From Candidatus Pyrohabitans jungbluthii (GTDB taxonomy: Archaea; Hydrothermarchaeota; Hydrothermarchaeia; Hydrothermarchaeales; BMS3B): 64,000 nucleotides of DNA. The DNA is taken from positions 352,001 through 416,000 of the forward strand of contig MTMD02000002.1 in assembly GCA_002010065.2 (NCBI GenBank), given 5' to 3'. The position numbers were made by a program, and so were the translations under genes. Numbering within the stretch: position 1 is the stretch's first letter; each line of letters starts with the position of its first letter. The notes under the pieces were generated by a model, which was given only the letters and a program-made list of their open reading frames with translations, ran no database searches and was not told the DNA's origin. Shown piece after piece: positions 25,385 to 28,107 of the stretch.

Positions 25385-25693
25385 CTACTGATACTCCCGC
25401 CAGGTGAACTTGCACTTGGTGCAGCGGTAGAAGCGCGTCTCGGCTTCGTCTGCCTTGCGCGTTTGCAGAAGCCACCACTCCGCCTCGAGGTTGCCGCATT
25501 TCGGGCACTCCGCTCGCGTCGTGGGAAGGGTTCTTACCTCCTGCTCTACCACAAGCATCTTATCCTTCTTCTCCTCCTTGCTCACAATCTTGTAGTCGGA
25601 CTCGTTTGCTATTTCAGCCTCTGCACCGCAGCGGGTGCACACCAGCTTCTTGTTCTTCGGCAGCATCAGGCTACCGCACTTATCGCAGAACAT
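25385..25693 (-). CDS. tfs: Transcription factor S
   Basis: FCDKCGSLM; CPKCG; QTRKADE acidic hairpin; FYRCTKC. Confidence 0.93.
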   Translation of the reverse strand: MFCDKCGSLMLPKNKKLVCTRCGAEAEIANESDYKIVSKEEKKDKMLVVEQEVRTLPTTRAECPKCGNLEAEWWLLQTRKADEAETRFYRCTKCKFTWREYQ

Positions 25694-26120
25694 ATTGCCT
25701 CCTCTTCATGTAGTCTTTTATTATATCAGCATGGTCGAAGGCAAGGCTCAGCTTTATCGCCTCTTCGAGGGTGAAGAGCCTCGCTTCGGCGGCGTCATCC
25801 TTACCTTTTAACTCGCCCTCACCGCGGGCGATGAAGCAGATGCTCACCACATGCCCTCGGGGGTCGCGCTCTGGCGCTGAGTATACGCCAAGCAATTCCT
25901 TAACGTCAACCTCCAAATTTGTCTCCTCTTTGGCCTCGCGCCTCGCCGCCTCCTCAACACGTTCGCCGCACTCCACAAACCCGCCGGGGAGAGCCCAGGA
26001 GCCCGCGAAGGGCTCATGCTTCCTGCGAATGAGCACTATTTGCTCGCCCACCTCGATTATTATGTCCACCGCGAGCGCTGGCGCCGGTCTAGAGCCGCAG
26101 ACGCAGGGACAGCGCATCAC
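25680..26120 (-). CDS. NUDIX hydrolase
   Basis: LPGGFVE.GE..EEAARREAKEET, RDPRGH, LAFDH. Confidence 0.92.
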   Translation of the reverse strand: MMRCPCVCGSRPAPALAVDIIIEVGEQIVLIRRKHEPFAGSWALPGGFVECGERVEEAARREAKEETNLEVDVKELLGVYSAPERDPRGHVVSICFIARGEGELKGKDDAAEARLFTLEEAIKLSLAFDHADIIKDYMKRRQYVLR

Positions 26121-26650
26121 TCCACCTCCTTGTAGGCATGGAGAAGCGCCGGCAGCATGCCGATTACAGTGCAGGTCTCGAAGGGCACAGCTTTGCCTGA
26201 AAGCTCTAAGTGATGCCTAGCCATGCTCAGCACCTCTTTTGGCAAGCCCCGCCTCCCCAAGCCCATTACCACCAGGAAGGACTTGCCTCGCTTAGCTCGC
26301 GCAGCCAGCTCTCTGGGTGAGATGTGCTTCTCCTGTGCAGGCTTCGACGTTGCTGCCACCACCTCGCCGAGCTGGGGAGGGAACCCACGGCGGGGAAACT
26401 CAAAGATGTTCAGCCTGCCCTTAGATGCGAGTAGCTTCAAGTAGCGTCCGCCTTCGCCTATGGTGGTGTCGCTCGCAAGTTCTTCCACAATGCTTGAGAA
26501 GCTGCCCTCAAAAGGGAAGCCAAAAAGCGCAAGGTTTACCTCAAAGGCATAGCAAACTGGCGCCGCCCTGGCTATGCTTCGCTTGTGGATGTCGTGCAAC
26601 CTCGCAGCATCGTAGCTGTTGTATAACCCCAGGGTTATCCTTCCTCCCAT
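26117..26650 (-). CDS. DUF531 family SPOUT-like protein
   Basis: TLGLYNSYD, ARAAP, TTIGEGG.YL, GFPPQLG, GLG..GLP, ETCT. Confidence 0.8.
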   Translation of the reverse strand: MGGRITLGLYNSYDAARLHDIHKRSIARAAPVCYAFEVNLALFGFPFEGSFSSIVEELASDTTIGEGGRYLKLLASKGRLNIFEFPRRGFPPQLGEVVAATSKPAQEKHISPRELAARAKRGKSFLVVMGLGRRGLPKEVLSMARHHLELSGKAVPFETCTVIGMLPALLHAYKEVE

Positions 26651-27084
26651 ATTGCATTACCCGCCTGTGCGAGAAGCGCCGCGAAGGCAGCTACCGACGC
26701 TGCTCTGAGTTCTCCCTCACGAGCCCCACGAAGCTTGTCCTCGAGTAAAGCAACGCACTCCTCAAGCGTTAGCGCTCCCTGAAGAAACGCTTGAGCAAGT
26801 AAGCTCTCGGCGAAGTCGCCCAGTTTGTGTTTATCTACCCGCGTGCCCGCACGCTCTCGCAGTCCTGCCTTAACCACAGCCTCCGCGAGAATTGAGTTGG
26901 AAACCTTCCTTCCCACCACCCTGCCAAGCGCCCGCGAAAGCGCGAGGGAGTAGATTAGGTTGGCTATGCTATCGCCAAGCGGAGAAAGCTCAGCAAAGCT
27001 GGTATCAAATCCCAGTACCGGGTAGCTTCTTTTCTTCTCCTTAGCTTTCCAGCTTCTTCTGCAGCTCATCAAACTCCTTCGCAA
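26635..27084 (-). CDS. Archaeal RNase III-like (mini-III) domain protein
   Basis: LGDS..NLIYSLA, LAEA, D.H.LGD.AE; start codon uncertain (overlaps rpoL). Confidence 0.7.
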   Translation of the reverse strand: MRRSLMSCRRSWKAKEKKRSYPVLGFDTSFAELSPLGDSIANLIYSLALSRALGRVVGRKVSNSILAEAVVKAGLRERAGTRVDKHKLGDFAESLLAQAFLQGALTLEECVALLEDKLRGAREGELRAASVAAFAALLAQAGNAIWEEG

Positions 27085-27526
27085 CTTCTTTAAGCACCTG
27101 CTTCAGCACAAAGCGAGGTGGCGAGGGAATGCCGTAGTCCAGCTTTTTTGCCTCGCTCACATAGCGTTCGAGTATTGACTTGGCTATGCCCGTCTTCTCA
27201 GCCAGCTCGTCTAAGTCGGCCTTGAGCAGGGCGTTAGCTGTGGTAATCCCCGCCTCCGCAAGCTGCTCCTTCCGCTTTGGGCCTATGCCCGGCACGGCTG
27301 TTATCTCAACCTCCTTCTCACTCTCGCGGGGCACCTCTATCCCAGCTTTAACCTTGAGGTAGACCACGGGCTGAGAGAGCAGCGGATGGGCTATGCGATA
27401 CGACGCAGCCACTACCGCGTCGTTTTGGTTAAGTGCCTGACGCAGCAGATTGCAGAAGGTGTGATCTTCACCTGCGAGCTCAAACTCCAGCTCAGTATCG
27501 TTCTCCCTGATAACCCTTATCTCCAC
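27041..27526 (-). CDS. rpoL: RNA polymerase subunit Rpo11 with inserted HhH domain
   Basis: GEDHTF.NLLR..L, AASY.I.HPL; located after csl4; extra VPGIGPK segment. Confidence 0.88.
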   Translation of the reverse strand: MEIRVIRENDTELEFELAGEDHTFCNLLRQALNQNDAVVAASYRIAHPLLSQPVVYLKVKAGIEVPRESEKEVEITAVPGIGPKRKEQLAEAGITTANALLKADLDELAEKTGIAKSILERYVSEAKKLDYGIPSPPRFVLKQVLKEVAKEFDELQKKLES

Positions 27527-27537
27527 GTCACAACCCC

Positions 27538-28107
27538 CTATATAACTCCCTTGCCATACTCTGTGGAATATTTCCGCGATTCATACCTGCCACAGTTGGG
27601 GCACACTAGCTTATTACCCTCAAGCCTCAGCGCTATGTTGCAGTTGGTGCAGTAAGCTTTGATGGCGCCAAGCGGGCGCTCAACCATAGACAAGGCGATG
27701 GGCACGCGCCTGGTGTTGGTAACCTTGGCAAGAACCACGTCGCCTATCTTGATCTCACGGTCTATGTCCTGTACATAGGTGTTGCGAAGCTGGGAGATGT
27801 GGATAGTGCCGTAAACATTGCCAGGAAGCTCGCGGCGGCTGCGCATAAGGCGTATAAGCTTCACCAAAGCAAACTGCTGCTTTACGTCTATTACCTTGCA
27901 CACCGCGATGTCGCCCACGCGAGGCTCTGGTATGATGTTTGTCTTGGGCTCAACCTCAATCTTACGCTCTTTCATGTCTATCTTGAGCACACCCGTAAGA
28001 GATGCGAATATCCTGCCGCTCTCCTCGTAGGTGCCTTTCCCCGGGATGAACTCCTCGCTGAACCCCAGCTCCTTGCCGGGGACAACAAACTCACCTGCCT
28101 CAACCAT
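27538..28107 (-). CDS. csl4: Exosome RNA-binding protein Csl4
   Basis: VVPG..LG..EEF.PG.GTY, S1 domain IHIS, C-terminal Zn ribbon and E.RK.S. Confidence 0.92.
   Translation of the reverse strand: MVEAGEFVVPGKELGFSEEFIPGKGTYEESGRIFASLTGVLKIDMKERKIEVEPKTNIIPEPRVGDIAVCKVIDVKQQFALVKLIRLMRSRRELPGNVYGTIHISQLRNTYVQDIDREIKIGDVVLAKVTNTRRVPIALSMVERPLGAIKAYCTNCNIALRLEGNKLVCPNCGRYESRKYSTEYGKGVI

Follow-up and report, generated by a model that had tools for sequence, protein, structure and literature searches.

A helix-hairpin-helix domain inserted in the RNA polymerase subunit Rpo11 of the Hydrothermarchaeota

Architecture of the rpoL gene product

We analyzed a stretch of 64,000 nucleotides (nt) from Candidatus Pyrohabitans jungbluthii, a member of the Hydrothermarchaeota, a phylum of archaea of the hot subsurface (contig MTMD02000002.1, positions 352,001 to 416,000), in the following called the window. 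It contains rpoL, the gene for the archaeal RNA polymerase subunit Rpo11, whose product carries a helix-hairpin-helix (HhH) domain inside the Rpo11 fold. This HhH-bearing Rpo11 is a real, phylum-wide variant of a known subunit. The gene and the parts of its product are located in the window as follows:

27041..27526, minus strand: rpoL (Rpo11), GTG start, 161 codons plus stop (open reading frame (ORF) list, Pfam)
27344..27526, minus strand: Rpo11 core, residues 1-61, comprising two strands, helix 1 and two strands (PF13656, structural model, Foldseek)
27122..27343, minus strand: inserted segment, residues 62-135, comprising an upstream linker, an (HhH)2 domain and the downstream linker KLDYGIPSP (alignment with an Rpo11 of 89 amino acids (aa), length comparison, model of the insert alone)
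27143..27307, minus strand: HHH_5 (HhH)2 domain, residues 74-128 (PF14520; RadA/Rad51 N-terminal domains as best structural matches)
27275..27292, minus strand: first hairpin PGIGPK, residues 79-84, a classical G-h-G motif (sequence reading, PF00633)
27182..27193, minus strand: second hairpin TGIA, residues 112-115 (sequence reading and alignment)
27044..27121, minus strand: Rpo11 C-terminal helix (PPRFVLKQVL...), residues 136-161 (model helix 136-160; alignments with 1xpp_A and 8xmc_K)

Both parts of the protein are recognized by Pfam. RNA_pol_L_2 (PF13656) matches residues 12-62 with 63.5 bits (cut-off 27), and HHH_5 (PF14520) matches residues 74-128 with 42.7 bits in the whole protein and 45.1 bits in the insert alone (cut-off 27). 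When only the insert was scanned, the HHH motif PF00633 was also found at insert residues 13-29 (E = 8e-4). The HHH_5 (HhH)2 domain is preceded by an upstream linker of 12 residues and followed by the downstream KLDYG...P linker. The conserved Rpo11 motifs GEDHTF and YRIxHPL are present in the core as invariant columns of the alignment, and R138 in the C-terminal helix is invariant (alignment A2). A first-pass annotation of the window had described the 161-aa ORF as about 60 residues of Rpo11, an insert and the usual C-terminal helix, which Pfam, the structural model and Foldseek bore out; the peptide it quoted corresponds to residues 75-129. It had also recognized the inserted domain as HhH, and Pfam, the insert model and VIA-align agree on a fold with two such motifs. 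We regard the identity and architecture of the protein, an Rpo11 core with an HhH insert, as practically certain.

The whole protein did not reach the curated cut-off of any of the nine matching RpoL equivalog models of NCBIfam (best score 62.5 bits versus 73 for NF002240), and these models align only from model position 1 to about 46-65. The scores remain below the cut-offs because the insert interrupts the full-length match, and for the same reason we label the protein a variant and not a standard RpoL member: it belongs to the Rpo11 family by Pfam, fold and genomic context, rather than being an RpoL equivalog of canonical length. This effect of the insert probably also explains why the protein carries a generic family name in public records.

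The turn before the last helix reads ...KGIEPREALKK... in a canonical 89-aa Rpo11, and the junctions in the window read ...AGIEVPRE-(insert)-PPRFVLKQ.... The insert is flanked on both sides by P-R-(E/F) (VPRE at 27325-27331, PPRF at 27113-27121), resembling the single PRE that opens the canonical last helix. The pair could be a trace of the origin of the insertion, or a coincidence.

Predicted structure of the subunit

An AlphaFold2 model of the whole protein, built on 16 family members, had a mean predicted local distance difference test score (pLDDT) of 89.6 and a predicted template modelling score (pTM) of 0.68. The Rpo11 core is modelled with strands at residues 2-8, 12-18, 38-44 and 54-59 and a helix at 22-34, the HhH unit with helices at 83-91, 97-102, 105-112 and 116-126 plus a short helical turn at 75-77, and the C-terminal part as one long helix (136-160). 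Foldseek superimposed residues ~1-65 on the archaeal Rpo11 chains 4qjv_D, 4qiw_L, 8cro_L and 2pa8_L with a root mean square deviation (rmsd) of 1.3-1.6 A over 63-65 columns. The best-listed match of the core was 4qjv_D (E = 3.9e-6, rmsd 1.4 over 63 columns), and the identity between the core and the listed archaeal chains is 36-43% over about 63-65 columns. Alignments with 1xpp_A and 8xmc_K cover 159-160 columns; Thermoplasma RpoL (1xpp_A) was aligned over 159 columns with a template modelling score (TM) of 0.77 on the target. Since 1xpp_A stays in register through the last helix, this helix corresponds to the C-terminal helix of canonical Rpo11, and the insert takes the place of the short turn that precedes it.

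According to the model, the Rpo11 fold closes around the insert. Modelled alone, the insert again gave an (HhH)2 domain (pLDDT 85) with low-confidence linkers on either side. The protein thus compares with canonical archaeal Rpo11/RpoL (eukaryotic Rpb11/AC19; chains L of 4QIW, 8CRO and 2PA8) as follows: fold and motifs are the same in the 61 N-terminal residues and the C-terminal helix, and the single copy and the operon position next to csl4 are shared, whereas the roughly 70 extra residues form an autonomous domain between strand 4 and the last helix. Judging from the sole copy and the conserved core residues, pairing of Rpo11 with Rpo3 should be retained, and we infer that the Rpo3/Rpo11 platform exposes the extra domain at its surface. 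Co-folding of Rpo3 (alignment A5) with only the isolated insert (alignment A4) gave a score of 0.00 and a mark of 0.32, values that lend no support to a contact and do not speak against one.

Copy number and distribution

The source genome (15 contigs, 99.95% complete) contains one PF13656 match, which is rpoL of the window. The first-pass annotation had considered that another, canonical rpoL might exist; none was found in this genome. Rpo3 is encoded away from rpoL, downstream of three ribosomal-protein-like ORFs. It is canonical, with 257 aa and two 4Fe-4S cysteine motifs, and no HhH domain was found in it. The cell has no Rpo11 other than the insert-bearing protein.

Among named proteins, those of Ca. 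Pyrohabitans and Hydrothermarchaeaceae are the most similar. Full-length, insert-bearing Rpo11 is encoded in 36 of 38 species-level Hydrothermarchaeota genomes, with matches covering the query from residue 1-2 to residue 125-161. For the remaining two genomes (93% and 86% complete) no convincing rpoL of any kind was found, so that a short canonical copy is seen in none of the 38 genomes. When species-representative genomes were scanned with a pattern, 22 of 78 confirmed loci covered core and HhH domain, and all 22 are titled as Hydrothermarchaeota-type or as unclassified archaeon. The insert was absent from all 56 fetched Rpo11 loci of other phyla, among them Thermofilaceae, Hadarchaeota, Methanosarcinales and DPANN groups. 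These match the core only and have ORFs of 84-110 aa, and the figure of about 70 extra residues given in the first-pass annotation is therefore correct. Its proposal of a lineage-specific insertion also held when the comparison across archaea was run (36 of 38 genomes inside the phylum, 0 of 56 loci outside).

We also searched 1.84 billion representative proteins with a profile. Nine clusters among the best 150 of 1,987 matches combine core and HhH domain; the other clusters among these 150 are Rpo11 proteins of about 90 aa or unrelated HhH proteins. Three of the nine (P0034, P0035, P0037) are taxonomically unassigned and share only 44-48% identity with the Hydrothermarchaeota locus closest to them. 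Because the profile search was evaluated for its best 150 matches and the scan of species-representative genomes took in only loci matching one peptide pattern, absence outside the phylum means not found in the material looked at, and not proven absence.

Two observations were made alongside. One metagenome-assembled genome (MAG) of the phylum, G015, has two insert-bearing rpoL genes (51% and 47% identity to the query; contigs 52 and 89) and two rpo3 genes (contigs 195 and 103), most likely reflecting two related populations in one bin. A 130-aa Rpo11 of another lineage (P0068) has a C-terminal extension of about 40 residues past the normal helix. By eye its sequence has the look of a UBA-type three-helix domain, and it is a second, different decoration of Rpo11.

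Authenticity and constraint of the insert

Nei-Gojobori ratios of nonsynonymous to synonymous substitution rates (dN/dS) were determined for 11 pairs of relatives with unsaturated dS and lie at 0.05-0.25 in the insert and at 0.06-0.30 in the core; saturation excluded a twelfth pair. Of 19 comparisons, 13 showed higher conservation of the insert than of the core. Purifying selection on the insert is as strong as on the core.

Independent sequence data were compared with the window. A 2,235-nt contig from an independent public run covers positions 27002-27700 with zero differences, and a contig of a related strain bridges both insert junctions, its differences being mostly spaced by 3 nt. An additional T at 27143 in one contig of run X6 would cause a frameshift within the HhH domain. 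It is absent from the other three runs and is probably an assembly error.

Nothing was found in favour of an artefact, be it a chimeric assembly or an additional rpoL whose product stays outside the polymerase; the X6 contig is the only weak point. Against an artefact stand the sole rpoL in the genome, the finding of this architecture in 36 of 38 genomes as well as in MAGs from numerous studies, the crossing of both junctions by contigs of independent runs, and dN/dS values well below 1. Since 36 of the phylum's 38 genomes share the insert and an independent contig covers it without a difference, it is not a product of chance or chimerism, and an artefact of either kind is almost certainly not the explanation. 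The possibility raised in the first-pass annotation, an insert unique to this assembly or chimeric, fails on the same data.

The family is not uniform. G80 is invariant and G82 nearly so (alignment A2). Members of the main order strongly conserve the first hairpin (G-h-G-P-K), including positions of the K83 type, and most of them also conserve the downstream linker with its post-domain motif K-L-D-Y/F-G. The three deepest-branching genomes encode a protein of 147-149 aa with a shorter insert and without the linker motif.

Relatives of the inserted domain

The insert was compared with known structures by a sequence-profile search of the Protein Data Bank (PDB), by Foldseek and by VIA-align against 48,161 chains. 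The profile search listed the HhH part of Haloarcula ribosomal protein L32e (E = 1e-7), DNA polymerase IV (7yll_A, 1.4e-7), N-terminal domains of Rad51/RadA (4e-6 to 2e-5), RecG (2.6e-5), the C-terminal domain of the bacterial alpha subunit (alpha-CTD) of Thermus (1doq_A, 6e-5), Pol beta (1e-4), Taq alpha (7e-4) and Topoisomerase V (8e-4). The top rows of Foldseek for the isolated insert were all Rad51/RadA N-terminal domains, with about 29-37% identity, TM 0.67 and rmsd 1.1-1.6 A over about 55 residues. The highest values of VIA-align belong to RAD51-family N-terminal domains (Z 9.1, 8.2 and 8.1) and the C-terminal domain of AF1548 (Z 8.9). Y-family polymerase chains (Z 7.6-7.7), NusA AR2 (7.1), NusA AR1 (6.7) and the alpha-CTDs (E. 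coli alpha 247-311, Z 6.6, rmsd 2.4, 64 aligned; B. subtilis 5.9; Thermus 4.7) all have values below about 8, which may reflect a mere common helical arrangement. The alpha-CTD model PF03118 was not among the 18 Pfam families listed for the insert up to E = 10.

The insert is an HHH_5 (HhH)2 domain, i.e. two motifs joined by a connecting helix. Together with alpha-CTD it falls into the broad HhH/SAM-like fold class, and its nearest kin are RadA-type HHH_5 domains. The N-terminal (HhH)2 domains of RadA/Rad51 share the Pfam family and are its best structural neighbours; they differ in host protein and position.

Comparison with other alpha-like subunits

The first-pass annotation had called the insert alpha-CTD-like. 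This holds as far as the fold class is concerned (1doq_A, E = 6e-5; Z 4.7-6.6), and in both cases a multisubunit RNA polymerase carries an (HhH)2-class domain on a scaffold subunit of the alpha family. It does not extend to the Pfam model PF03118, the position, the linker or the stoichiometry, and closer matches exist elsewhere. Bacterial alpha-CTD is joined to the C-terminal end of its subunit through a long flexible linker, is present on both scaffold protomers and makes contacts with UP-element DNA and activators. The Rpo11 domain, in contrast, is internal (~62-135), held by short linkers at the N-terminal end of the last helix, and is found on only one of the two alpha-like subunits, as Rpo3 lacks it. 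The HhH domain of Rpo11 arose independently of alpha-CTD, the resemblance is one of convergence, and 'alpha-CTD-like' applies by analogy only.

Another accessory domain of the platform is the ferredoxin-like domain 3 of Rpo3/RpoD. It is described in passages of a 2026 review of alpha-like subunits as lineage-variable, far from the active site and with a documented role in assembly (PMC13374769). Like this domain, the HhH domain is an accessory unit inserted in an alpha-like platform subunit; unlike it, the insert has another fold and lies in the other subunit, and Rpo3 of the source genome retains domain 3 as well.

Archaeal and eukaryotic polymerases are described as retaining only the N-terminal scaffold part of bacterial alpha. 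Searches of main texts on Rpo11/RpoL and on the RNA polymerase of Hydrothermarchaeota yielded no description of an HhH-bearing Rpo11. The passages of the 2026 review that cover archaeal additions list the Fe-S domain of Rpo3, and a term search found 'HhH' and 'hairpin-helix' nowhere in it (PMC13374769). Passages of a 2026 survey of archaeal small subunits treat Rpo8 and Rpo6 and do not describe the Rpo11 insert, and passages of a paper on RNA polymerase structure (PMC2675907) do not describe the Rpo11 loop.

An autonomous domain of DNA-binding type on Rpo11, under strong constraint, is a natural experiment in adding surfaces to a conserved polymerase core, and the insert is a concrete candidate, amenable to cloning, for a new contact of an archaeal polymerase with DNA or a factor. 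There is also a practical side: rpoL is used as a phylogenetic marker gene, and the insert adds about 70 unalignable columns to rpoL alignments.

HhH modules on ribosomal proteins

The closest paralogue of the insert in the source genome is the C-terminal HHH_5 domain of a 136-aa fusion with ribosomal protein eL13 (PF01294):

Contig 5 of the source genome (G000), locus L014:1442-1852, minus strand: eL13-HhH fusion (Pfam)

This module is 53% identical to the insert over residues 66-129 and, in a second comparison, 60% identical over 52 residues, versus about 34% identity between the insert and RadA of the same genome. The fusion is present in 12 of 12 Hydrothermarchaeota genomes looked at (G000 and L123-L133) and in the representative clusters P0082, P0089 and P0110. 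Furthermore, two genomes of the phylum encode a uL10/P0-like protein, identified by eye, that ends in the same HhH module (frames of 388 aa in L134 and 391 aa in L135); the C-terminus of archaeal P0 normally bears a short conserved factor-binding tail. Related representatives comprise eL32 with four HhH repeats and multi-HhH DUF4332 proteins. The source genome has nine HHH_5 matches in total. A tree of the HhH modules of Rpo11, eL13, P0 and RadA left 17 of 33 inner branches unresolved; it was based on 56 columns, with a wrong segment in three rows (L012, L013, L037), and no relationship is read from it.

Haloarcula L32e (1JJ2/1S72), eL13 and uL10/P0 have in common with Rpo11 that a small HhH module was added to a core information-processing protein. 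On the ribosomal proteins these are terminal fusions, whereas the Rpo11 module is an internal insertion in a polymerase subunit. The same module on Rpo11, eL13 and P0 points to a phylum-wide decoration of information-processing machines with HhH units.

Possible function of the insert

HhH modules generally raise the nucleic-acid affinity of other enzymes. Based on the hairpin sequences and the nearest relatives of the domain, we tentatively predict that the insert binds the nucleic-acid backbone. We propose that an ancestor of the phylum gained an insertion of about 70 residues in the turn leading from strand 4 to the C-terminal dimerisation helix. Within the assembly platform the subunit would keep its pairing with Rpo3 and expose the extra domain on the enzyme surface, where it may act as a sequence-independent clamp for the backbone of double-stranded nucleic acid. 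Through the hairpins GIGPK and TGI the polymerase would be kept on DNA, or DNA or RNA on the back of the enzyme would be kept in place. Given the short linkers, the contact would be fixed and local and not that of a mobile promoter-reading arm like bacterial alpha-CTD. Since the module also occurs on eL13 and, in two genomes, on uL10/P0, a generic nucleic-acid affinity fits better than a promoter-specific role.

Several points weigh against this reading. In the three deepest-branching genomes the first hairpin has no glycines and is acidic, so that the classical contacts of hairpin 1 cannot be a universal requirement. The net charge of the insert ranges from -4 to +12 in 21 sequences and is -3 in the window; it is not consistently basic. 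Solved RNA polymerase structures have the alpha-like platform on the face opposite the DNA cleft, and with short linkers the domain would hardly be able to reach promoter DNA in the cleft. NusA AR2, which binds protein, is a structural neighbour too (Z 7.1), and RAD51 N-terminal domains also take part in protein contacts. Foldseek gave no match for the isolated insert at E <= 0.001 (best 6.5e-3), the alpha-CTDs lie in the ambiguous range of VIA-align, and the RpoL equivalog scores of the whole protein are below the curated cut-offs for all nine matching models. Separately, net charge of the insert was dropped as a predictor of DNA binding because it is too variable.

Some of these observations would also suit protein docking, in which the HhH domain recruits a lineage-specific factor, in the way that NusA AR2 binds alpha-CTD and RAD51 N-terminal domains bind their partners, or pairs with the nearly identical modules of eL13 or uL10/P0 and so links polymerase and ribosome. 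NusA AR2, NusA AR1 and the alpha-CTDs as structural neighbours (Z 7.1, 6.7 and 4.7-6.6), the variable charge, the dispensability of hairpin 1 in the deep branches and the same module on eL13 (12 genomes) and uL10/P0 (two) are all consistent with it, and the conserved downstream linker of the main order suggests a fixed presentation. No candidate partner was identified, however, and hairpin 1 (GIGPK) is of the type known from DNA-binding HhH proteins, while the protein-binding NusA repeats are not known to have G-h-G. In addition, eL13 and the P0 stalk are located on the large ribosomal subunit, away from the site of bacterial polymerase-ribosome coupling. Docking appears somewhat unlikely.

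A purely structural role requires no ligand at all: the domain would pack on Rpo11, Rpo3 or Rpo1 and stabilise the assembly platform of a thermophile. A lineage-specific domain with an assembly role is known from the same platform, namely the Rpo3 Fe-S domain in passages of the review named above (PMC13374769). The linkers are short, the downstream one being conserved in the main order, the deep-branch inserts are degenerate yet retained, and the pTM of the whole-protein model (0.68) is compatible with such packing. A mere spacer, however, would have no need of the hairpin glycines and HhH signature that are under strong purifying selection in the main order. Moreover, the same module sits at the free C-terminus of eL13 and P0, which marks it as an autonomous unit. 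We consider a purely structural role unlikely.

There is also a more far-reaching reading. The phylum might have independently re-invented the use of alpha-CTD, with an HhH domain on the alpha-II-equivalent subunit that contacts DNA behind the polymerase, regulators, or both. If true, an archaeal Pol II-like enzyme would gain a bacterial-style recruitment surface. A bolder version has the nearly identical modules of Rpo11, eL13 and uL10/P0 sharing a ligand or pairing with each other, and thereby joining the transcription and translation machines. We regard this reading as distinctly improbable.

Genomic neighborhood of rpoL

The genes next to rpoL form a run on the same strand:

27538..28107, minus strand: csl4 (exosome RNA-binding subunit), directly upstream of rpoL (NF034126, 189 bits, cut-off 90)
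26635..27084, minus strand: PF11469 (Ribonucleas_3_2) gene, downstream of rpoL (Pfam)
26117..26650, minus strand: DUF531 gene, next in the run (PF04407, 225.8 bits)
25385-25693, minus strand: TFS/RpoM-type gene of 102 aa, about 1.3 kb downstream of rpoL (Zn_ribbon_RPB9 and Zn_ribbon_TFIIS)

The GTG start of rpoL lies 11 nt downstream of the csl4 stop, and the order csl4-rpoL is kept in all three deep-branch loci looked at. With the TFS/RpoM-type gene near rpoL, the region clusters several transcription and RNA-processing genes. From its listed TTG start the PF11469 ORF overlaps the final 44 nt of rpoL (27041-27084), and the true start of this gene may lie further in. At one deep-branch locus (L015) an ORF follows rpoL at the position equivalent to the PF11469 gene.

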